Source: an uncultured Spirochaetota bacterium
GTDB taxonomy: Bacteria > Spirochaetota > UBA4802 > UBA5550
DNA: 64,000 nucleotides
Reading direction: 5' to 3'
Assembly: GCA_963827275.1 (NCBI GenBank)
Contig: CAWHAA010000004.1
Span: 1 to 64,000, forward strand
Shown here: in pieces, positions 7,786 to 19,525 of the stretch
Position numbering within the stretch: position 1 is the first letter of the stretch
How the letters are laid out: the number at the start of each line of letters is the position of its first letter
Position numbers and translations under genes: made by a program
The notes under the pieces: generated by a model
Seen by the model: only the letters and a program-made list of their open reading frames with translations
What the model was told of the DNA's origin: nothing
Database searches by the model: none

Positions 7786-10700
7786 ATGAAGAAGTTTTCA
7801 GTCCTTTTATCGATGGTGTCCCTGTTGCTGGCGCTCTTTTCCGGCTGTTCCAGTGAGAAATTTCCTGAATTCCAGACCAATGACGAGCCTGCGCCATTTG
7901 ACCTGTTGAATCTGTTCGCCGGGTATCCGGTACTCGATGCCGCCTGGGACAGCGTGCCTGGCGGAACGGGAAACCAGAAGCTGGCAGCGATGATGCAGAG
8001 CGATATTCCCGGGACCGCTGAGTTCATGTACATCCTTTCCTATCTTATGGAGCGGGCGGTCGCTCCGGGCCTTGACCTGCTGGATGACATCAAGGCCTCG
8101 CTCGCGTTCGTTACGGACGATACGGAGCGTTTCTACGGGAACAACCAGAAGGGGACGCCCTACGCGATTAATTCGTTTTACGGCGACAACAACGCGCCGA
8201 CCTATCTGGAGGATTTTTACGGGTTCCTCGATACGGTTGCGGAAGCTGTGCCGGGCAATAACAATAAAATCGGAGTGGGCGTGATCGGAATCATGAACAG
8301 GGCGGTGCACTACCTGCTCAACGAAAAAACGGACGCGGAGCTCGACGACTTCATGGTCGACCTGGTGGAGACACTTACGGTCACCGATGATGATCCCGCA
8401 GACGGGGAGTTGGACTTCAAAGCGGATTTCCTCGATCTTGCCGAGTTTCTCTCCACCCCGGTGGCGATGGCTGATTTTCCCATGTTTATAACAGAAGGCG
8501 CTGTCCCCGGCGAGGACACGCTTATCACTGATATTCCCTCCATGCCGGGCGGCACTGATTCAGACCTCGGCAACATGGCAAAGGGACTGGCCTCGCTGAT
8601 GAACGGGTTTCTCTCCATGCTCCACGGCGAATCCCTGGACAGGGAGGGGATGTATGACCTGATCGGGAACCTTGACGCCGCGCTCGCTGACCCGGATGTC
8701 ACGCAGCGGCTTATCTGGAACATGGCCAACTATTTTACCGCGGGCGGCTCAGTGTACGGGGCCGCGGTCAATACCACGAACACGAATGTCAACGCCAACC
8801 AGTACAATACGGACAACGATCCCACCGCGGGCCTTTACTCCAACGTGGAATTAAAAGAGAACCTTTCCCAGCTCCTGACCGGCGCATCGGGACTCTTCCT
8901 CCGCGACGACCGGCGGTCATCCATGGTCTGGTACAACGGCACAACCTCGCAGGACTATCCCCTCGCGTCACTGCTGAAGAACGTAAAGAATATCTACATG
9001 GACTGGGACAACGCCCAGATACAGGAATCGGTCTATGACCTGATCCGCTTTGACGCGCTTGGCCGCGACCGCACGATCGCGGGCTCCTATTCGGCCAGCA
9101 TGCTTGAGCACCTGCTGTATCTCGGTGCCATTGCCGGCAACACGGGATGGTCTCATTTGGCGGATGCAAATGAAATTGAAGATTCAAATATTTTCTCCAG
9201 CAATACAAAAGAAGATTCAGCACGGCGTCACGGGCATGGTGAATTCCAGGGCTACCTGACCCTGAATGATTCATTGTTTTCTATCATGGGTGCGCGTGAT
9301 TCGCTTGCCAGTTTGGGCACCTACGAACTCCTGTTTGACGGTAGTGGGGTCATCAAGGGGGTAGATCAGGTATTCAGAAGAAGGACATCTTTCAATGGGG
9401 CTACTGCGGATCGGGACAACTACAAATTCAGATACACCTGGAACTACCCGGCCCTGCAGTTTTTAAGCGGGGCGTGTGTGGGCGATTTCGGCGTCAGCAC
9501 CGAAGGCTCGCTCCACGGTGGGAATGATGATGGGGGTCTCGGTAATGACCAGTATATTCCCTATTCGGCCAACGGCATATACACAAAGGACCTGGCCTCC
9601 TGGACCTTTTCCTGGGTAATACGCGCGTGCTGGGAGGGAGAGGGGCCCTATTACGCGACCCAGGGCGCGACCCGGTCCGGGAACGAATACACATACAAGC
9701 GGCCTGACGGGTCAGTGTATGCCACGGTTGTCAAGACTGATCCTGGTGACGCTTCTACATGGACGTATACCTACCCGGTAAGCGCATCCTATGATAAAGC
9801 CGATCCGGATGACGCGACCCTGAGGTGGAATAGGTATAAAGCGGCCTGGAACACCGATTATTTCATGATTAGAAGCCTCGCTGGGACCAACTATGTACCG
9901 AAGGACAGTACCGGCGATACCAGGCCTGATACCTCTACGAATCCCGGGTATCGGTCTTATACTGAAATGATTCCCGAGAAGAGCGCAGCCAGGGAATGCG
10001 CCTCGCAGGAAGAGGCCTTGTTCCGCAACTTTCAGTGGGTCATGAACGAGAAGAGGTTCGCCATGATCATTCCCCTCTGGCTGAGAAATACTGGCGGTCT
10101 TGGCGGGAGCATAGAATCCGCTGCATACCAGATAATTGAAGGAAACGGCATACACGGCCTGTCGGCGGCGCGTATCATGAGGGATAATGGCGTATGGGCG
10201 AAATATAATCAGGGCAGTACCGCTGATTCTTCGGTCATGTCTCAGGTGCCCGGCGATTACAGGATAATCATTCTCTCAGAGGAGATCCAGACCGGAACCT
10301 GCGGCCTCGGTGCCGTTGACGCGGACAAGATACTGAGCCTTCTCGGCAATGGAGCAGCCACCCCCGCTACCATCGGGCACAATATAACCGCTATATCGCG
10401 GTTCGGGTTCCCCCGGAGCTCGCTGGTGACCAGCGGGACCAATTACGAGCACCGGCTCCTCGGGTCAAGAAACGTGGGTACTGCGAACCAGGACTACGGC
10501 TTTCAGCTCAACGACGGCGACTGGACAAAGAGAAACTCGCTGCTCCCGCTCTTTATCGCGCTCCTGGCACCGCTGCGGGAGAGATCGTATGTAGCGGATC
10601 CCTTTAATGTTTCGGCAAACAGGAACGCGCTCGCGCAGACGCTCGAGGGCCTGGGCGCACTGGTGAAGCCGTGGACCTTCTTTAACTACAACTGCGATTC

Positions 10701-11970
10701 AAGCGGCGTGGCCGCCAATACCTGGCTGCCGAGGGTCAAGGGCGGCGCCCTGAGTTACGATTATTACATGAACCATTCCATATCGCTCGTTCCGGATTGC
10801 GAAATTAGCGGGTTTTCCACATCCGGCACAAAGGGCTGGTACGGCGGCGACAGCGCGCGCGACTATTACACGCCTCCTGCAATGCCGACCCTCCTGTCCG
10901 TGCTTCTTGACTCAGACACGACCACGAACCGGAGCAACACGACACGGCGCGCGGACGGGCTTCTCGGCAGGCTCATGTACTATGACGTTGCCGCGGGCCG
11001 CCCGGCCGTGACCGAGACCCTGACCACGCACACCCCGCCCGACGATGCCGCGGTGAACAGCTTTTGCTACGGCCTCGAGCAGCTCACCAGCGCCATGAAG
11101 GGGGCGCGGTCAAAGGGGACGAGGATCTATGAGGACATGAGCGGCGATATCAGCGTTCACGGCTATACGGACCAGATCAGCAGGGTGACCAAGGGGATCG
11201 ACCCGCCCGCCTGGCTCTTCCAGAAGCGGGTGAGGCCGGATGATGGAACGAAGTACATCGATCTGGACCTTGACGACCTCCTGAATACGGTCATCGGCGA
11301 GACCGCGTCGGACGGCCTCAGGCAGTATCAGGACGTCAATACGCTGTATAACGACGGCACCGGCGATCCTGACTTCACGGATTTTAATGAGACCATCACC
11401 GACCTGAGCGACCTGACCGGCGATTTCCTGGTCGAGGGCGCCCCGTACTTCATATCCGAGCATCTCTTCGACGTCATGGACGCGCTGTTCCAGCACAACG
11501 TACCGAGCGAGGCGCAGGTGAAGGGACTCCTGTACACCCTGGGCAAGCTCCTCGCCTATTACGACGGGTCCGACTGGCTCTTCCAGGGCGGCGACCCGGG
11601 CTTCTCGGTGCTGTATGATTTTCTTACCACCGCGGTGCCGAACATCCACAACGAGATGGGGCTCTACAACGGCGTGCCGAACCGGGGCACCACCTACCGC
11701 TCGCTGATGAACAGCCTGTGGCAGGCCACGGCCGACAACGGGCTGGCCGCGCTCATAATGGAGACGATAAGCATCGGGCACTACAGCAGCGGCGATTTCA
11801 TCAACGAACTGGCGCTCTGGCTCGATAGCGATCTCATCAGCGGCCCGAACACCGAGTTCTACCCGATAATGGCGGACCTGCTGCGGGACATGGGCGACCT
11901 GGTTGAAAATTCGCCGACCGCGGAGGGCCTGTACATGCTCTATGACTACTATGGGTTCCAGGGCTACTAA
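7786..11970 (+). CDS. Very large hypothetical lipoprotein (1394 aa)
   Basis: MKKF-hydrophobic-LFSG-C lipobox, GGGGAG ribosome-binding site, uninterrupted ORF; acidic helical termini and a Gly/Asn/Thr/Tyr-rich centre. Confidence 0.85.
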   Translation: MKKFSVLLSMVSLLLALFSGCSSEKFPEFQTNDEPAPFDLLNLFAGYPVLDAAWDSVPGGTGNQKLAAMMQSDIPGTAEFMYILSYLMERAVAPGLDLLDDIKASLAFVTDDTERFYGNNQKGTPYAINSFYGDNNAPTYLEDFYGFLDTVAEAVPGNNNKIGVGVIGIMNRAVHYLLNEKTDAELDDFMVDLVETLTVTDDDPADGELDFKADFLDLAEFLSTPVAMADFPMFITEGAVPGEDTLITDIPSMPGGTDSDLGNMAKGLASLMNGFLSMLHGESLDREGMYDLIGNLDAALADPDVTQRLIWNMANYFTAGGSVYGAAVNTTNTNVNANQYNTDNDPTAGLYSNVELKENLSQLLTGASGLFLRDDRRSSMVWYNGTTSQDYPLASLLKNVKNIYMDWDNAQIQESVYDLIRFDALGRDRTIAGSYSASMLEHLLYLGAIAGNTGWSHLADANEIEDSNIFSSNTKEDSARRHGHGEFQGYLTLNDSLFSIMGARDSLASLGTYELLFDGSGVIKGVDQVFRRRTSFNGATADRDNYKFRYTWNYPALQFLSGACVGDFGVSTEGSLHGGNDDGGLGNDQYIPYSANGIYTKDLASWTFSWVIRACWEGEGPYYATQGATRSGNEYTYKRPDGSVYATVVKTDPGDASTWTYTYPVSASYDKADPDDATLRWNRYKAAWNTDYFMIRSLAGTNYVPKDSTGDTRPDTSTNPGYRSYTEMIPEKSAARECASQEEALFRNFQWVMNEKRFAMIIPLWLRNTGGLGGSIESAAYQIIEGNGIHGLSAARIMRDNGVWAKYNQGSTADSSVMSQVPGDYRIIILSEEIQTGTCGLGAVDADKILSLLGNGAATPATIGHNITAISRFGFPRSSLVTSGTNYEHRLLGSRNVGTANQDYGFQLNDGDWTKRNSLLPLFIALLAPLRERSYVADPFNVSANRNALAQTLEGLGALVKPWTFFNYNCDSSGVAANTWLPRVKGGALSYDYYMNHSISLVPDCEISGFSTSGTKGWYGGDSARDYYTPPAMPTLLSVLLDSDTTTNRSNTTRRADGLLGRLMYYDVAAGRPAVTETLTTHTPPDDAAVNSFCYGLEQLTSAMKGARSKGTRIYEDMSGDISVHGYTDQISRVTKGIDPPAWLFQKRVRPDDGTKYIDLDLDDLLNTVIGETASDGLRQYQDVNTLYNDGTGDPDFTDFNETITDLSDLTGDFLVEGAPYFISEHLFDVMDALFQHNVPSEAQVKGLLYTLGKLLAYYDGSDWLFQGGDPGFSVLYDFLTTAVPNIHNEMGLYNGVPNRGTTYRSLMNSLWQATADNGLAALIMETISIGHYSSGDFINELALWLDSDLISGPNTEFYPIMADLLRDMGDLVENSPTAEGLYMLYDYYGFQGY

Positions 11971-12914: not shown

Positions 12915-13796
12915 ATGGATTATTTTAACAACAAGCTCGCTTTCATCACCGGCGGATCAAGCGGGATCGGTTTTGAGACAGCATGCCTTCTTGCCTCACG
13001 GGGGTGCAGCCTGGTGCTGTTCGCGCGTGGGCAGGCCGGGCTTGATACGGCGTGCAGGGAGATACAGCTGCGCACGGTTACTACATCGCAGCGTATACAT
13101 TCCCTTCCCATGAATGTTGCGGATAACGATGATGTGCGGCAAAAAATCAACCATGCGATCGACCGGTTCGGCGTGCCGGATATGCTGATAAACAGCGCCG
13201 GTATCGGCACCGGGGATTATTTTGAGAACATATCCTGCGAGCAGTTTGACCGGGTGATGAAGACCAATGTGTATGGGACAAGGAACGCCATCAGCGCGCT
13301 CCTCCCGTTCATGAAGCAAAAGGGCGGGGGCCATATTGTAAATATATCTTCCGTGGCAGGGCTGATCGGCATGTTCGGCTACACCCTCTATTGCGCGACG
13401 AAATACGCGATCGTGGGAATGTCGGAGTGTCTCCGGAGCGAGTTGAAGCGGTATAACATCGCGGTCACCGTGGTGTGCCCGCCCGAGGTTAATACGCGCT
13501 TTGTCGAGGAAGAAGCGAAAACCCTCCCGCCCGAGAGCAGGGCGGTGAAGGGCCTTGCTGGCCTGCTCGAGCCGCGCGATGTGGCGCGGGCGATCGTGAA
13601 GGCGGTCAGGAAAAAGAGGTTTATGGTCATTCCCGGGCTGTCCGCGAAGTTCCTGATTTTCCTGCACCGCGTCAGCAACGGGCTTCTGACCAGGCGGCCG
13701 TCCGATTTTGGTGGTGTCATTGACCGCGTGGAGAGCGGGAAAGAGATAGCTGCGACGCCTCGTGGTCCGGGCGCGGGCGTCCGGATCAGAGGATGA
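12915..13796 (+). CDS. SDR oxidoreductase, KDSR (3-ketosphinganine reductase)-like; true stop may be 13749
   Basis: TGGSSGIG, NSAG, NISS, YCATK, VCPPEVNT. The tail overlaps hisF and may reflect a +1 indel near 13707. Confidence 0.85.
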   Translation: MDYFNNKLAFITGGSSGIGFETACLLASRGCSLVLFARGQAGLDTACREIQLRTVTTSQRIHSLPMNVADNDDVRQKINHAIDRFGVPDMLINSAGIGTGDYFENISCEQFDRVMKTNVYGTRNAISALLPFMKQKGGGHIVNISSVAGLIGMFGYTLYCATKYAIVGMSECLRSELKRYNIAVTVVCPPEVNTRFVEEEAKTLPPESRAVKGLAGLLEPRDVARAIVKAVRKKRFMVIPGLSAKFLIFLHRVSNGLLTRRPSDFGGVIDRVESGKEIAATPRGPGAGVRIRG

Positions 13797-14559
13797 CGTC
13801 GATGCCCCTGCCGCTCAGGTATTCCTTCACCTGACGGATGCTGAAGGTGCGGAAGTGGAACACCGACGCTGCCAGCAGCACCTGCGCCTTGCCCCTGACC
13901 ACGCCGTCGTAAAAATGCTCGAGCTTCCCCGCGCCGCCTGACGCGATGACCGGCACGGTCACCGCGTCCGCCACCGCGCTCGTGAATTCCAGGTCATAGC
14001 CGGCGAGTGTGCCGTCCCCGTCCATGCTGGTGGGGAGGACGCAGCCAACACCCGCGTCGTTGCAGGCCCTGGCCCATTCGATGGCGTCCTTGCCGACCGG
14101 CCTGGTGCCGCCGGAAACCACCAGCTCGAAGCCCGAGGGCAGGGCGCTGTTGCGCCGCGCGTCGATCGCGATGGTGATCCTGCCGGGGCCGAACTCCTTC
14201 ACCGCCTGCCGCATCAAGGGCGGGTCCTTTACCGCGGCGCTGTTCATCGAGACAGAGGAGGCGCCGGAAGCCAGAACCAGCTCTATGTCCTCCAGGCCGT
14301 TGATGCCGCCGCCGACCGTGAGGGGGATGGTTATCGCCGACGAGACCTGCCTGACCCATTCGAGCCGGGTCTTCCGGTTTTCGAGCGTGGCGGCGATATC
14401 GAGCATGGCGAGCTCATCGGCCCCCTCGGCCTGGTAAAAGGCCGCGTTTTCAGCGGGATCTCCCGCGTCGCGTATATTCACGAAATTAACTCCCTTCACG
14501 ACCCGTCCCTCTTTCATGTCAAGGCACGGCATTATCTTTATCTTTCCCATGATGTCCAT
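13786..14559 (-). CDS. hisF: Imidazole glycerol phosphate synthase cyclase subunit
   Basis: PCLDMKEGRVVKGVNF, DAGDP, GADEL, IPLTVGGG, TSMDGDGTLAGYD, PVIASGGAG, LAASVFHF. Confidence 0.95.
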   Translation of the reverse strand: MDIMGKIKIMPCLDMKEGRVVKGVNFVNIRDAGDPAENAAFYQAEGADELAMLDIAATLENRKTRLEWVRQVSSAITIPLTVGGGINGLEDIELVLASGASSVSMNSAAVKDPPLMRQAVKEFGPGRITIAIDARRNSALPSGFELVVSGGTRPVGKDAIEWARACNDAGVGCVLPTSMDGDGTLAGYDLEFTSAVADAVTVPVIASGGAGKLEHFYDGVVRGKAQVLLAASVFHFRTFSIRQVKEYLSGRGIDVIL

Positions 14560-14581: not shown

Positions 14582-16501
14582 TCACGCGCCAGAGATGATC
14601 GCCCTGATCCGGGCAGTCAGGTCCGCTGTCTCCTGCTTCGTTTCCCGGATGAATGAATCGTCTCCGGCCGGCGTGTTGACGTCGGCATAATCCGGTATTA
14701 TTGTGCCGCCCCTCAGGTCGTCGCGCTCCTTCGACTTGAACGTGCTGTCGGACACCAGCGCGAGAATGTCGATGAGGCGCGACAGGTTGTCGCTGACGCT
14801 CCTCAGGATGTAGGTCTCGCCGGCGAGGACCTGACGGGCGTGCTCCCATTCCAGGTCCTCGGTCTGCCGCTCATAGATGTCCTGGAGGATGCCCGTATCT
14901 CCCGTTTCGCGGAGGGCGGTTATGCGGTCAAGCATCCGCATCAGGGCATAGTATTCGATATAGAGCCGGTAGGTCTCGATCCCGCTCTTCCTGCTCTGCT
15001 CGGTCATGAAGTTCTTCCCGAGACCGGGAATGTCGCTGCCCGTATAGAGTTCCCTCACGCGGCCGACCCCCTTCAGCGCGTCCCGCGCGGCGATCATCAT
15101 GTCGATAATTGCCGGCCTGAACACCGCGAAGGAGAACGAGGAACGTCGCGCCTTGTTCCGTTTCCGGTACTTGCCCTCGTTTCTTCTTACCGCGTAGATG
15201 TTGTGTGAGAGCACCCACCCGGGGAAGATCTCGTTGAACGAGGGGGATATTCCGGGCGCGTGCGCCGACGGCTTGTTGACCAGTGAAAACGGAAATTCAA
15301 GCCGCTGCGGGAGCGTGTCCACCCCGGTGGCGATGATCGAGTAGGGCGCCCTGGTGAAATCGGACGGGAACTTGATGTTCGTCCCGAGGCCGAAAAACAT
15401 CCCTTCCCCGCACCAGATCTCCTGGTCGGGGGACTTCGAGGTATGGTTTGAGCCGATGTTGGCGCCGTAGGCCACGTTGCCCTTTCCTTCCGGCCAGATG
15501 CCGGCAATGAGCATTGACTGGTGGTGAAATCCGACAAAGGGGCCGAGCAGGCAGGAGGTCACCTCGCCCTCGGCCACGCCGGTGTTCGGGCCGATGATGC
15601 TCATTGTCACCTTGCCGTGACGCTCGACATGGGAATGCTCGCAGAGCACGGACTTGTCGACGATCGCCATCGAGGTGACCTCGCAGCCCCACTGCACGCA
15701 GGAGTCGCTGACGTATGCCCCGTGGCTGACCTCCGTCTTCTCGTCCGGGGTCGCGAGCAGGGTGGAGTTCCTGACCAGGGTCGCCCCTGTCACGGCAACG
15801 TCGTCGCCGATGTAGGAGTCTTCAATCGTCGGCGTATTCCTGATGACCGCGTTTTTCCCGATGTACCCTGACGGCGCCGTGCATTTCCCGACATACCGCT
15901 GTATGAATTCAGCGTACCCGCGGAGCAGCTCCCTGTCGGACCTGTTTTTCGCGACCGCTTCCGCGACCGCGACCGTCAGATCGGCGAAGGAGGCGATTTC
16001 CCTGCCCCCGGTTTCGTTGCCGACGGCAATTTCGATGCCGTTGCCGAAGGAGCAGGCGCCGGACGCGGATATCGAGCCGTTATTCAGGAGCACGGCCCCG
16101 TCCCGCACAACGCAGTTGGCAACGGTGCCCGTGTCATGGATGACGCACCCGTGGCCGATTTCCGAGTTGATGATGGTGCTGCGGTAGATGCCCGCCGGGA
16201 GGCCGGACGCCGCGCCGCTGTGCGGCGCGGCGGCGCCGCACTTTCCGAGGCGGCAGGCCCCGTGGAAGGAGCTGTAAAAGACGGCCGCGGGAGTGAAGTC
16301 GGGCGTGACCAGTATGGCGCTCCAGTCCGATGAGATGTTCCCTTGCGCTGACAGGCGGTCTATCTCCTCGTCCCGCAGGGGCCGCACGTTGTCTCCGAAG
16401 AGCCGGCTCCCGGACCGGTTATCCTTCAGCAGCTCGATGCTTTTCAGAAAAACGGAGTCCTCAAGAATGGTTCCTGTCAGGGTCCCTGTTTTTGTTGTCA
16501 T
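14582..16501 (-). CDS. DUF4954 family left-handed beta-helix protein with GlmU-acetyltransferase-like core
   Basis: Hexapeptide repeats; GPFVGFHHQSMLIA..GNVAYGANIGSNHTSK..GEGMFFGLG; RRNEGKY..RNK. Confidence 0.8.
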   Translation of the reverse strand: MTTKTGTLTGTILEDSVFLKSIELLKDNRSGSRLFGDNVRPLRDEEIDRLSAQGNISSDWSAILVTPDFTPAAVFYSSFHGACRLGKCGAAAPHSGAASGLPAGIYRSTIINSEIGHGCVIHDTGTVANCVVRDGAVLLNNGSISASGACSFGNGIEIAVGNETGGREIASFADLTVAVAEAVAKNRSDRELLRGYAEFIQRYVGKCTAPSGYIGKNAVIRNTPTIEDSYIGDDVAVTGATLVRNSTLLATPDEKTEVSHGAYVSDSCVQWGCEVTSMAIVDKSVLCEHSHVERHGKVTMSIIGPNTGVAEGEVTSCLLGPFVGFHHQSMLIAGIWPEGKGNVAYGANIGSNHTSKSPDQEIWCGEGMFFGLGTNIKFPSDFTRAPYSIIATGVDTLPQRLEFPFSLVNKPSAHAPGISPSFNEIFPGWVLSHNIYAVRRNEGKYRKRNKARRSSFSFAVFRPAIIDMMIAARDALKGVGRVRELYTGSDIPGLGKNFMTEQSRKSGIETYRLYIEYYALMRMLDRITALRETGDTGILQDIYERQTEDLEWEHARQVLAGETYILRSVSDNLSRLIDILALVSDSTFKSKERDDLRGGTIIPDYADVNTPAGDDSFIRETKQETADLTARIRAIISGA

Positions 16502-16526
16502 TGCCGTTCTGCCTGTGGAGGTGGTG

Positions 16527-17318
16527 TTATCTTCCGATCTTTTTCTGCACGAGCTTTTTGTTGTCCCGCACCCAGTTGTAATACTCCGTGCGCGTGAGCA
16601 TCGAGGCGGCCTCCTGGTCGAGGACGACCGTAGCGCGGCAATGGAGCTGGAGCGCGGACGCCGTGATCATGGAGGTGACCGGGCCCTCTATGAATTTCGC
16701 GCAGACCTCGGCCTTTTTCTTGCCGTTTGCGATGAGCAGGATGTTCCTCGCTTCCAGTATCGTGCCGATGCCCATGGTGATGGCGAACCGGGGGACATCC
16801 TCCTCTTTTTTAAAGAAGCGGGCGTTGTCCTCTATTGTTTCCTTGTATAACGCCTTTACCCTGGTGCGGCTCGCGAAGGAAGAGCCCGGCTCGTTGAAGG
16901 CGATATGGCCGTCGCGCCCTATGCCGAGGATCTGGAGATCGATGCCGCCGGCCTCATTTATTTTTTTTTCATACCATTCGCAAAAAATCTCCGGGTCCTG
17001 GGTGTTTCCCTGCGGAACGAAGACGCGCGACGGATTGACATTCACGTGCTTGAAAAAGTTTTCTTTCATGAAGTGGTTGTAGCTGTTCTCGTGCAGGGGC
17101 GCGAGGCCGACATATTCGTCAAGGTTGAAGGTGGTTATCTTCGAAAAATCAAGGCCTTCCTCCTTGTAGAGCTTGACCAGCTCCTTGTAGGTGCCGACCG
17201 GCGTGTCGCCCGTTGCGAGTCCCAGGGTAAGGTCGAATTTTTTCTTTACCTCACCGGCGATAATCTCGGCCGATATCCTGCTCATCTCTTCGTAATCTTT
17301 TGCGATGATTATTTCCAT
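16527..17318 (-). CDS. nagB: Glucosamine-6-phosphate deaminase
   Basis: LGLATGDTP, TFNLDEYVGL, GGIDLQILGIGRDGHIAFNEPGSS, AITMGIGTI. Confidence 0.96.
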   Translation of the reverse strand: MEIIIAKDYEEMSRISAEIIAGEVKKKFDLTLGLATGDTPVGTYKELVKLYKEEGLDFSKITTFNLDEYVGLAPLHENSYNHFMKENFFKHVNVNPSRVFVPQGNTQDPEIFCEWYEKKINEAGGIDLQILGIGRDGHIAFNEPGSSFASRTRVKALYKETIEDNARFFKKEEDVPRFAITMGIGTILEARNILLIANGKKKAEVCAKFIEGPVTSMITASALQLHCRATVVLDQEAASMLTRTEYYNWVRDNKKLVQKKIGR

Positions 17319-17625
17319 GCTGTTTCCCCCCGTGGTGCTATGGCTAAAAAGCGCGTGCCGCCTGACCCCGGATTTTTCAGCAGGAAGGAAAACAAGTCAA
17401 ATAATTTATTAATGCCGGCTGATTTTGTATGCCGCCCCGCGCAGGTGGGTTTTTCTGGCGCGGCAGCCGGGCGGAGGGCGGAACATAGTTATGTCGCCTG
17501 GTATCCGGCCGGCGGCACACGGGCAGCGGGCGCCCGGCAAAGGGCCCTGCCCCAAAAATTTATTGATCAAATCGGGCCGGTTTGTTACTCTGCGGTTGAG
17601 ACCAGATCCCTTTTCAGGAGGAGCC

Positions 17626-19005
17626 ATGATCACCTTTCCGGGCTACGAAGCGGTGATAAAGCGGGTGTATGACAATAAGCAGGAGCACGTGTTCGAGTAC
17701 TGGAACGAACTGGACGACCTGGAGAAGAAACACCTTCTCGATGACCTCTCGGACATAGATTTTTCGCTGCTCCTGAAGTTGTTTTTTTCAAAGGAGACCG
17801 CCATGGAAACCCATTTCGACGCGGCCCCCTACATTGCGCTCCCCACAACCGAGGATGAAAAGAGAGAATTCTCTCGCGCGCGCGAAGCGGGGATAACCCA
17901 CGCGCGGCAGGGGAAGGTGGCGGCGTTCGTGGTCGCGGGCGGGCAGGGATCGCGGCTGGGGTACGAGGGGCCGAAGGGGATGTTCCCGGTGGGCCCGGTG
18001 TCGGGAAAAACCCTCTTCCGGATACACGCGGAGAAGATACTCGCATATTCTCGTAAGTACGCCGCCGCCATACCCTACCTGGTCATGACCTCGCAGGCGA
18101 ACCACGACCAGACCGAGGAGTATTTCGGGAAAAACGACTATTTCGGTCTCGGGCGGGAGAACGTGTACATATTTCCGCAGAACATGATCCCGTCACTTGA
18201 TGCCGCGGGAAAGCTGATCCTCGAATCAAAGCACAACGTGTTCAAAAATCCTGACGGCCACGGGGGGAGCCTGACGGCCCTCTACACCTCCGGCGTCCTG
18301 GCCGCGATGAAAGAGCGCGGGGTCGAGACGATATCGTACTTCCAGGTGGACAACCCGCTGGTGCGGATCGTGGACCCGGTCTTCGTCGGCTTTCACGTCC
18401 TGCGCGGCGCGGACATATCAAGCAAGGCGGTCAGGAAAGCCTACCCGGGGGAAAAGGTGGGAGTGTTCGTGCGCTACGGCGACAATACCATCGGGGTCGT
18501 CGAATATTCGGACATGCCCGAAGAGAAAACGCACAGCCTGGATGAGAGGGGCGGACTCCGTTTTTCATCGGGCAGCATCGCGATCCATCTTTTTCAGAGG
18601 GAATTTATCGAGCGGGTCACCGCGGGCACCGAAATCGCGCTCCCCTTCCATACCGCGAAAAAGAAGATCAAGGCCTTTTCCGGCGGCGTCCGGAGGGAGG
18701 TGGACGGCTTCAAGTTCGAGAAGTTCGTGTTCGACGCCCTCCCGCTCACGCAGAAAAATATCGTGTTCGAGACGCAGCGGGAGGAGGAATTCGCCCCGGT
18801 GAAGAACGCGGAGGGGGTGGATTCGGTCGTTTCAGCCCGGAAGATGATGAGCGAGCAGCACCGGCGCTGGCTCGCGGACCGGGGGATCCGGGTCCCGGAG
18901 AGGACAAAGGCGCTGGAGATATCCCCGCTGGTCGCGGTGGAGCCGGAAGACCTTGATCCGAACATGAAAATTGCCGATGATGAGAACGTGTATATCACCG
19001 TATAG
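17626..19005 (+). CDS. UDPGP type 1 family, eukaryote-type UDP-N-acetylglucosamine pyrophosphorylase (UAP-like)
   Basis: AGGQGSRLG..PKG, PDGHGG, QVDNPL, EKVG, VVEYSD, KFEKFVFD, REEEFAPVKN; GGAGG ribosome-binding site before ATG 17626. Confidence 0.9.
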   Translation: MITFPGYEAVIKRVYDNKQEHVFEYWNELDDLEKKHLLDDLSDIDFSLLLKLFFSKETAMETHFDAAPYIALPTTEDEKREFSRAREAGITHARQGKVAAFVVAGGQGSRLGYEGPKGMFPVGPVSGKTLFRIHAEKILAYSRKYAAAIPYLVMTSQANHDQTEEYFGKNDYFGLGRENVYIFPQNMIPSLDAAGKLILESKHNVFKNPDGHGGSLTALYTSGVLAAMKERGVETISYFQVDNPLVRIVDPVFVGFHVLRGADISSKAVRKAYPGEKVGVFVRYGDNTIGVVEYSDMPEEKTHSLDERGGLRFSSGSIAIHLFQREFIERVTAGTEIALPFHTAKKKIKAFSGGVRREVDGFKFEKFVFDALPLTQKNIVFETQREEEFAPVKNAEGVDSVVSARKMMSEQHRRWLADRGIRVPERTKALEISPLVAVEPEDLDPNMKIADDENVYITV

Positions 19006-19012
19006 GGGAACC

Positions 19013-19525
19013 ATGAAGACACCATTAACAGTCCGTGCCGTAATGATGATAACACTCTGCGCGCTGTTCTGCGCCGCCGCGTCCGCGAAGCCCGGGGACC
19101 GGGTCCTTGTCCTCGGCTTTGAGTCGGCGCAGCTCAACGACCTGCAGGACCGCCTCCTTCGGGAGACCGTGATGCGCCGCCTGCACACCGAAGGGTACAG
19201 GATCGTCCCGGTCATGGAGATCGAGTCCGCCTTCAATGAAGAGAGGAAGGGCCGGATACGCATGCTGTTGCGGAGCGAGATCCGCGCGGTCTGCGACGAG
19301 ATGAACGCGGGGTTTGCCCTTTCCGGCGCTGTCAGGCCGGAAGACGGCAGCCGCGGCGGCGAAATCGTGCCGGGGAAAAATTACGTGTGCTCGATGGTCC
19401 TCTACCGCAGGGACGGGAACAGGTTCATGGAATTCAGGCTCGCCGCCGCCGGCGGGAAGACCCTCTATGAATTTTACGACTCGCTGGCGGCGCTCATCGC
19501 CAGGGGGATCGGGGACCTGCTCTGA
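19013..19525 (+). CDS. Secreted hypothetical protein (TolB-N/CsgG-like alpha/beta domain)
   Basis: Signal peptide ending ASA-K; RVLVLGF..YRIVP..FALSGAV pattern. Confidence 0.6.
   Translation: MKTPLTVRAVMMITLCALFCAAASAKPGDRVLVLGFESAQLNDLQDRLLRETVMRRLHTEGYRIVPVMEIESAFNEERKGRIRMLLRSEIRAVCDEMNAGFALSGAVRPEDGSRGGEIVPGKNYVCSMVLYRRDGNRFMEFRLAAAGGKTLYEFYDSLAALIARGIGDLL

Follow-up and report, generated by a model that had tools for sequence, protein, structure and literature searches.

A conserved nagB–DUF4954 gene pair as a candidate for the missing acetylation step of UDP-GlcNAc synthesis in spirochaetes

UDP-GlcNAc (uridine diphosphate N-acetylglucosamine) is required for peptidoglycan. In a 64,000-nucleotide stretch of DNA from an uncultured Spirochaetota bacterium (GenBank assembly GCA_963827275.1, contig CAWHAA010000004.1, positions 1 to 64,000; hereafter the window), a gene for a protein of the family DUF4954 lies directly behind nagB, the gene for glucosamine-6-phosphate deaminase, in a genome whose GlmU is only half-length. 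The locus raises the question of which protein acetylates the amino sugar on the way to this precursor. The question extends to the phylum, since a survey of 12,939 genomes reports the complete UDP-GlcNAc pathway to be absent in spirochaetes and the FCB group and suggests loss (10.1101/2020.01.15.908491). By sequence comparison, the nagB–DUF4954 pair is real and conserved and a strong candidate for the missing cell-wall precursor step. Weighing gene context together with the predicted structure, we think it probable, if well short of certain, that DUF4954 is a stand-alone acetyl-CoA:glucosamine-phosphate N-acetyltransferase that fills the step absent from half-length GlmU.

The missing acetylation step and the nagB–DUF4954 pair

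In the window's genome, the GlmU open reading frame (ORF), located between ispE and prs, matched the bifunctional GlmU model TIGR01173 at model positions 3-241 of 452 only, and is by this match a stand-alone uridylyltransferase half (GlmU-N) at the usual ispE–prs site. Neither TIGR03991, the family 'alt_bact_glmU' (a hypothetical alternative GlmU of spirochaetes and others), nor TIGR03992 was found over cut-off in the genome, and no other ORF scored better than E 1e-7 against the GlmU C-domain and TIGR03991 profiles. All 6 relatives fetched, of which five are genus mates and one is a close relative, have a TIGR03991 gene behind fusA. At that fusA site in the window's genome ∼270 bp separate the two flanking genes, within contig C7, and there is no TIGR03991 remnant; judging from this comparison the genome has lost TIGR03991 from a site that its genus mates keep. 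Searches for nagA, galU and canonical glmM also gave no match over cut-off in the genome.

The initial annotation had asked whether the genome lacks glmU and glmS. The GlmU C-domain is indeed without a match, but the uridylyltransferase half of GlmU is present and so is glmS. In the assembly glmS is split across two frames, and since the extra base is missing from the contigs of 4/4 public runs, we attribute the break to an assembly error. The idea that a broken glmS forces NagB to run backwards was rejected because the frameshift is absent from these contigs, and NagB need not be the source of glucosamine-6-phosphate (glucosamine-6-P) that the annotation had made of it. None of the listed runs holding glmS was an RNA run. 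Frameshifts that affect glmS, fusA and also a nucleotidyltransferase gene (L005:1515; G000 C7 near 146600; L188) suggest assembly indels, that in glmS alone having been checked.

The DUF4954 gene occupies positions 14582..16501 on the minus strand, and its 639-aa product, the candidate glucosamine-phosphate N-acetyltransferase, belongs to PF16314 (E=1.4e-47; 162.8 bits against a gathering score of 26.2), with a match that covers profile positions 2-431 of 433. The upstream neighbour of the gene, likewise on the minus strand, is nagB (16527..17318, 263 aa), whose product scores 322 bits against the TIGR00502 equivalog cut-off of 236.9. The two genes are separated by 25 bp, just as first described. 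The closest relatives carry Spirochaetota record titles, and species genomes hold 567 relatives in all, from which the best 80 loci were taken for locus counts, with nagB located by tblastn. Among these 80 loci, whose record titles cover more than 10 bacterial groups, 51 have nagB directly upstream of DUF4954 and on its strand, and another 4 have it at some other place; 18 have none, and the flanks of the remaining 7 are too short to tell. The link to nagB is thus a conserved one. Metagenomes in which the species has been seen come from bioreactors, sediment, wastewater, manure and freshwater (16 runs with at least half of the sequence words), and contigs from four public runs cover the region of the window in each of the 30 bins.

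A second link runs to glmS, which adjoins DUF4954 in two loci (L068 and L175) and lies at most 4 kb away in two others (L155 and L156). Furthermore, five giant proteins of 2,641-3,992 aa (P0172, P0151, P0237, P0239 and P0242) unite DUF4954 with domains of the GlmS type in a single chain, one of them mapping to the G226 phylum (Omnitrophota by record title). No link to nucleotide-sugar or lipid A clusters appeared among the recurring DUF4954 neighbours. Taken with the absence of a GlmU C-domain and of TIGR03991 from the genome and with the near-exclusivity described below, the nagB link and the GlmS fusions support the initial proposal that DUF4954 supplies the missing acetylation step.

Some further features of these loci are recorded here. 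At their N-terminus the giant proteins have a stretch that looks like a signal sequence, and they repeat an AGLE motif; the contig that encodes P0172 (L228:4751-14776) also holds a separate nagB–DUF4954 pair. The NagB proteins beside DUF4954 (relatives in L016-L095) are 66-78% identical across several phyla, an unusual conservation which suggests a distinct subfamily travelling with a nagB–DUF4954 cassette. In five spirochaete loci (L065:9919-12249, L052, L071, L088 and L047), the gene directly downstream of DUF4954 encodes a long protein resembling NagB, which measures 777 aa where complete and is PRK02122-like at a score below cut-off.

Fold and putative active site of DUF4954

An AlphaFold2 model of the DUF4954 protein, built on a 149-sequence alignment, reached a mean predicted local distance difference test (pLDDT) score of 94.7 and shows a long left-handed beta-helix that has a helical insert, and a C-terminal domain that is helical as well. 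Compared with this model by VIA-align, Salmonella YdcK (2f9c) gave a Z-score of 21.7, QdtC (a dTDP-amino-sugar N-acetyltransferase, 3fs8) 18.2, GlmU 17.2 and LpxA 15.6. A wide structure search tied QdtC (Z 18.0) with GlmU (17.1), and Foldseek placed GlmU at the top but weakly (E 2.7e-4). A beta-helix, which the initial annotation had wished to superpose on that of GlmU, was predicted, but GlmU is not a better match to it than QdtC or YdcK, and in the model the fold indicates the beta-helix acyltransferase type, not specifically GlmU. QdtC, LpxA/LpxD and YdcK share this fold at Z 15-22, and LpxA has a helical domain behind its beta-helix as well, but their identity to DUF4954 is 8-16%.

The GlmU C-domain (EC 2.3.1.157; TIGR01173; PDB 1hm0, 2oi6) resembles DUF4954 in its left-handed beta-helix (Z ∼17) and, by genome context, in its place in the pathway, at ∼16% identity in the structural alignment. 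Unlike GlmU, the 639-aa DUF4954 protein stands alone without a nucleotidyltransferase (uridylyltransferase) domain, falls far under the TIGR01173 cut-off (best GlmU-type scores <20 bits) and has extra N-terminal coils, the helical insert and a C-domain of helices in which R440, K444 and R448 are invariant. It is likewise outside TIGR03991, scoring 13.3 bits against a cut-off of 225.3.

Pairwise comparison gave little. BLASTP between DUF4954 and E. coli GlmU returned nothing significant (E at least 0.34), a close-relative DUF4954 profile against the single E. coli GlmU sequence gave a non-significant probability of 56%, and BLASTP and phmmer against GlmU or the PDB found nothing significant, the profile matches being weak and generic. 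In GlmU, Glu349, His363, Asn377 and Asn386 have catalytic roles, and a tail of the R440/W449 type or the GVPAR type binds coenzyme A (CoA); on the roles of the GlmU catalytic residues, nothing was found in the literature searched. The putative catalytic stretch of DUF4954 runs from E313 to H353 (E313, H326, H327, N342, N352 and H353; 15443..15565, minus strand). Among the 149 DUF4954 relatives, H327 is kept in 149, E313 in 148, and N342 and N352 each in 146. Spirochaete DUF4954 splits into three subtypes by score and length, and E313, H326, H327, N342, N352, H353, R440 and K444 are kept in 26/26 sequences across all three. When a profile of all three subtypes was aligned with the GlmU C-domain profile, the match reached a probability of 97% (E 5.7e-11), and its register, kept in 18/20 resamplings, placed E313, H327, N342 and N352 of DUF4954 on E349, H363, N377 and N386 of GlmU, giving both proteins the same Glu-His-Asn-Asn set at the same spacing. 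This is the register of the by-eye alignment of F325-G393 (15323-15529) in the initial annotation, which is recovered at the level of profiles but not by pairwise search. The claim that the equivalents of His363, Asn377 and Asn386 are kept fares similarly, as H327, N342 and N352 are near-invariant and profile-aligned, with one profile giving a different register. In context and motif, then, DUF4954 resembles the GlmU acetyltransferase domain, while by sequence score it is outside the GlmU family. A spaced motif built from the two sequences was not used as evidence, since among 14,821 six-frame ORFs it matched 4 others as well, while TIGR03991 escaped it.

Neither motif of the GlmU-type CoA tail (E. 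coli R440/W449 or GVPAR type) is present as such in DUF4954. P427, within IFPGW, IMPAY or LIPAL, is kept in 147/149 relatives and may be the counterpart of the GlmU CoA-binding tail.

Occurrence of DUF4954 beside TIGR03991 and GlmU

For a survey of the phylum, the same 201 Spirochaetota genomes, each at least 90% complete, were searched for every family. DUF4954 was found in 91 (including one fragment at a contig end) and TIGR03991 in 95 (91 over cut-off and 4 at E<1e-50), with both in a single genome and neither in 16, where ∼43 genomes with both would be expected if the two were independent. Three weak TIGR03991 matches (∼1e-18 to 1e-22), of which two came from genomes with DUF4954, were not counted. 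In the window's own order, DUF4954 alone is carried by 10 genomes, TIGR03991 alone by 20, both by 1 and neither by 1, and two genera of this order are split. The switch between the two families occurs inside genera g1 and g11 and inside families f1 and f13. A glmS gene is present in 167 of the spirochaete genomes; 162 of these carry one of the two families but not the other, 1 carries both and 4 carry neither. That 163/167 glmS-bearing genomes carry DUF4954 or TIGR03991, and almost never both, points to two unrecognised enzymes filling the UDP-GlcNAc hole of spirochaetes, and it is this near-exclusivity, together with the conserved place behind nagB, that makes glucosamine phosphate the likely substrate for acetylation by DUF4954.

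The remaining genomes can be read in the same terms. Twelve of the 16 with neither family lack glmS but have nagA and nagB, the gene content expected of GlcNAc scavengers. Of the 20 DUF4954 genomes without glmS, 17 have nagB, which fits NagB supplying glucosamine-6-P there but is no proof of it. TIGR03991 shares with DUF4954 a beta-helix, the same Glu and His spacing and a link to glmS, and differs from it in length and domains. In family f14 it directly follows glmS (e.g. G063:C1:395695-398553 and G085:C1:515329-518178), and from this position looks like a stand-alone acetyltransferase partner of GlmU-N there; these family f14 proteins lack the first 140 model positions. Canonical GlmM matched in 0/201 genomes at E<=1e-70, so by profile the mutase step appears as a second hole, and for the same reason canonical glmM failed as a discriminator between a 1-phosphate and a 6-phosphate acceptor. 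In the 136 genomes of the G226 phylum, DUF4954 occurred in 8 and TIGR03991 over cut-off in none, making the replication of the exclusivity uninformative; Bacteroidota were represented by the B. thetaiotaomicron control alone.

Several observations weigh against this assignment. In structure, Foldseek TM-scores between DUF4954 and GlmU are only 0.11-0.15, and YdcK (Z 21.7, root-mean-square deviation 3.2, 258 aligned) is nearer to DUF4954 than GlmU 1hm0 (Z 17.2, 4.2, 201 aligned), with which QdtC ties; in sequence, a profile of the near subtype alone shifted the register against GlmU by one coil. The five GlmS–DUF4954 fusions resemble each other and look like one lineage, and count as about one event. 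Kin genomes are not independent, which makes the exclusivity a pattern and not a P value (Fisher values overstate it), and since TIGR03991 is a hypothetical equivalog only, the exclusivity ties one candidate family to another. The window's genome is 92% complete and leaves room for GNAT-type acetyltransferases. Most directly, full-length GlmU occurs in 7/201 spirochaete genomes, and all 7 carry DUF4954 and a GlmU that keeps H363, N377 and N386; the anti-correlation with glmU that the initial annotation had foreseen is not a simple one. When 50 of the 80 DUF4954 loci, mostly from non-spirochaete phyla, were given to genome searches, TIGR03991 was over cut-off in 12/50 and full-length GlmU present in 5/50. 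One of these DUF4954 genomes (L119) has a fully intact GlmU with an E. coli-type site, and a record titled Candidatus Firestonebacteria has TIGR03991 and DUF4954 in one run of genes, nagB, pta, ackA, TIGR03991, acyl carrier protein (ACP), acpS and DUF4954 (L059:3015-9881). Loss of K351, R440 and W449, which had been tried as a sign of a dead GlmU, was dropped because 5 DUF4954-negative control GlmUs lack these residues too.

The coexisting GlmUs do differ from controls at their ends. Of the 12 full-length GlmUs from DUF4954 genomes, 11 have neither a tail of the E. coli type nor the GVPAR tail, and 4 further GlmUs from such genomes end at or before the N386 region, whereas 5/5 DUF4954-negative genomes of the G226 phylum have a GlmU over cut-off that ends GAG.V...GVPAR. 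If this tail does bind CoA, these sequences would fit a decay of the GlmU acetyltransferase where DUF4954 is present. Separately, GlmU-like proteins of 490-510 aa with a beta-helix lacking the His and Asn equivalents occur in L103-L106 and L143.

A possible route and its alternatives

In the route that we propose, glucosamine-6-P would be provided by GlmS, by NagB run towards amination or by NagB-linked salvage; DUF4954 would acetylate the amine, presumably as a trimer in which His327 is the base and Glu313 its neighbour; a non-canonical phosphohexomutase would shift the phosphate; and the stand-alone GlmU-N would make UDP-GlcNAc. Two phosphohexomutase genes are present in the genome. We lean only slightly towards glucosamine-6-P over glucosamine-1-phosphate as the acceptor, because glucosamine-6-P is the product of both conserved neighbours and the 201 genomes gave no canonical GlmM match; the GlmU-like site of DUF4954 argues for the 1-phosphate, the acceptor of GlmU itself. 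With glucosamine-6-P as acceptor, the order of steps would be that of the eukaryotic hexosamine pathway (GFAT or NagB, GNA1, AGM1, UAP1), with DUF4954 doing the job of GNA1. GNA1 has a GNAT fold, unlike the beta-helix of DUF4954, and the last step here is more likely catalysed by GlmU-N than by the UAP-like protein discussed below. Capnocytophaga canimorsus Ccan_15070 is a tested stand-alone GlcNAc-1-P uridylyltransferase, as predicted for GlmU-N here, but that organism is a GlcNAc auxotroph (PMC4358021). A wider claim is possible but a good deal more tentative: that DUF4954 is a beta-helix glucosamine-6-phosphate N-acetyltransferase, an analogue of GNA1 with an unrelated fold, within an undescribed bacterial UDP-GlcNAc route (GlmS or a NagB working in the amination direction, a mutase for GlcNAc-phosphate and a uridylyltransferase that stands alone) found in nearly half of spirochaete species, including Treponema pallidum, and in several other phyla, its arrival letting GlmU or TIGR03991 lose their acetyltransferase role.

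The initial annotation had made the third gene of the locus, a divergently transcribed gene for a UAP/AGX1-like UDP-sugar pyrophosphorylase (PF01704; 17626..19005, plus strand, 459 aa; likely start the ATG at 17626, preceded by AGGAGG), the last member of a NagB–DUF4954–UAP pathway. Its divergent orientation and type were described correctly. The 11 best solved relatives are all UAP/AGX1 (E 2e-77 to 6e-47), matches to USP and UGP being 2e-13 or weaker and those to UDP-glucose pyrophosphorylases E 5e-10, and the motifs VEYS, HLF and EKF.FD are kept. These points, and a recurrence of the arrangement in L016, speak for a dedicated UDP-GlcNAc pyrophosphorylase of a three-gene unit, a reading that concerns the third gene only and is compatible with our view of DUF4954, but which we consider unlikely. 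In UAPs, the Asn of DGNGG leaves room for the N-acetyl group. The protein here has DGHGG where two aligned UAPs have DGNGG, with His likewise in 18/18 relatives, and its H212 falls, by match ranges, within one residue of His192 of T. brucei UGP, which helps to exclude N-acetylated (2-acetamido) sugars (PMC3270307); the accessible part of PMC6329318 holds nothing on this His/Asn residue. The gene is adjacent to DUF4954 in 1/80 loci and present in 31/31 other genomes of the order regardless of the acetylase candidate carried. Five genus mates have it with the same downstream genes but without nagB–DUF4954 there. In one genus mate (G072) the pair lies elsewhere, 800 kb from the UAP-like gene, and another (G198) has nagB alone at a third site. 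From these comparisons the UAP-like gene is probably a resident gene of the order, not part of the nagB–DUF4954 module, and likely a chance neighbour of DUF4954. With no galU over cut-off in a genome that does have GlmU-N, UDP-glucose is the likelier product, and by sequence the protein more likely serves the cell as a pyrophosphorylase for UDP-glucose or for a broad range of UDP-sugars. A single-sequence model of the UAP-like protein (pLDDT 32) was unusable. An ESM Atlas feature search gave leads below 0.9 only, automatically named UDP-GlcNAc pyrophosphorylase. Neither the role of UAP as a dedicated partner nor the three-gene pathway as a unit is supported.

Around these genes, hisF (13786-14559, minus strand) lies 22 bp downstream of DUF4954, an order also present in L016, with no hisH among the flanking ORFs scanned. 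A 184-aa ORF without a Pfam match (18971-19525, plus strand) overlaps the end of the UAP-like gene and was found close to it in 9/18 related loci, and a 1,394-aa ORF (7786-11970, plus strand), also without a Pfam match, has a lipoprotein-like N-terminus.

Other functions for DUF4954 have to be weighed against glucosamine-phosphate acetylation with acetyl-CoA. The DUF4954 protein could instead complement TIGR03991 as an acyltransferase for hexosamine phosphates whose donor, as with LpxA and LpxD, is a carrier protein (acetyl- or acyl-ACP), or as an acetyl shuttle between GlcNAc-phosphate and the Pta/AckA pool. Such a role would account for the gene order of L059, for the ACP gene one gene away from DUF4954 there and directly beside it in L183 and L185, and for the helical C-terminal domain after the beta-helix, LpxA aligning at Z 15-16 over model residues ∼228-498; yet an ACP gene is near DUF4954 in just these 3/120 loci, the two ACP queries taken from near DUF4954 had no match at E<=1e-3 in the window's genome despite 12 other PP-binding matches over cut-off, and the 1-in-201 overlap with TIGR03991 would be left unexplained, making this an improbable reading. 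A shade less probable is another role for the beta-helix in connection with NagB, be it as an acyltransferase acting on some other amino sugar or as a partner or sensor without catalysis, with the exclusivity reflecting lineage history. The best structural match being the uncharacterised YdcK, with QdtC tying with GlmU, the coexistence with TIGR03991 or long GlmU in many genomes and the differing chromosomal sites of nagB–DUF4954 in genus mates, like those of a mobile cassette, would suit it. Against it stand a switch that takes place within genera (g1, g11) and within families (f1, f13), polar residues that do not vary between the three subtypes, and the lack of a nagB match in 12/25 near-subtype genomes, by which NagB is no obligate partner.

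Least probable of all, to the point of being remote, is that DUF4954 replaces NagA in breakdown, passing the acetyl group of GlcNAc-6-P to CoA and glucosamine-6-P on to NagB. The want of a nagA match in the window's genome and in 31/31 others of its order invites this idea, as do the NagC/Mlc-like ROK regulator gene near the pair in 12/80 loci and pta–ackA in L059. Acetyl transfer from an amide to a thioester is uphill, however, nagA is present in 45/91 DUF4954 spirochaete genomes and adjoins DUF4954 in L184, and the biosynthetic hole would stay unfilled.

Returning to DUF4954 as a glucosamine-phosphate N-acetyltransferase, no functional assignment for DUF4954, PF16314/DUF6819, TIGR03991 or TP0851 was present in the literature searched, which covered few subscription journals. 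In published work, the Treponema pallidum DUF4954 gene is listed (PMC6953169), most Bacteroidetes are inferred to be unable to make GlcNAc (PMC4358021), and T. forsythia is described as lacking glmS and glmU (PMC5790795). If our reading is true, a large family of so far unassigned proteins would gain a function and metabolic models of spirochaetes would change, and Treponema pallidum would own a cell-wall enzyme unlike the human one.

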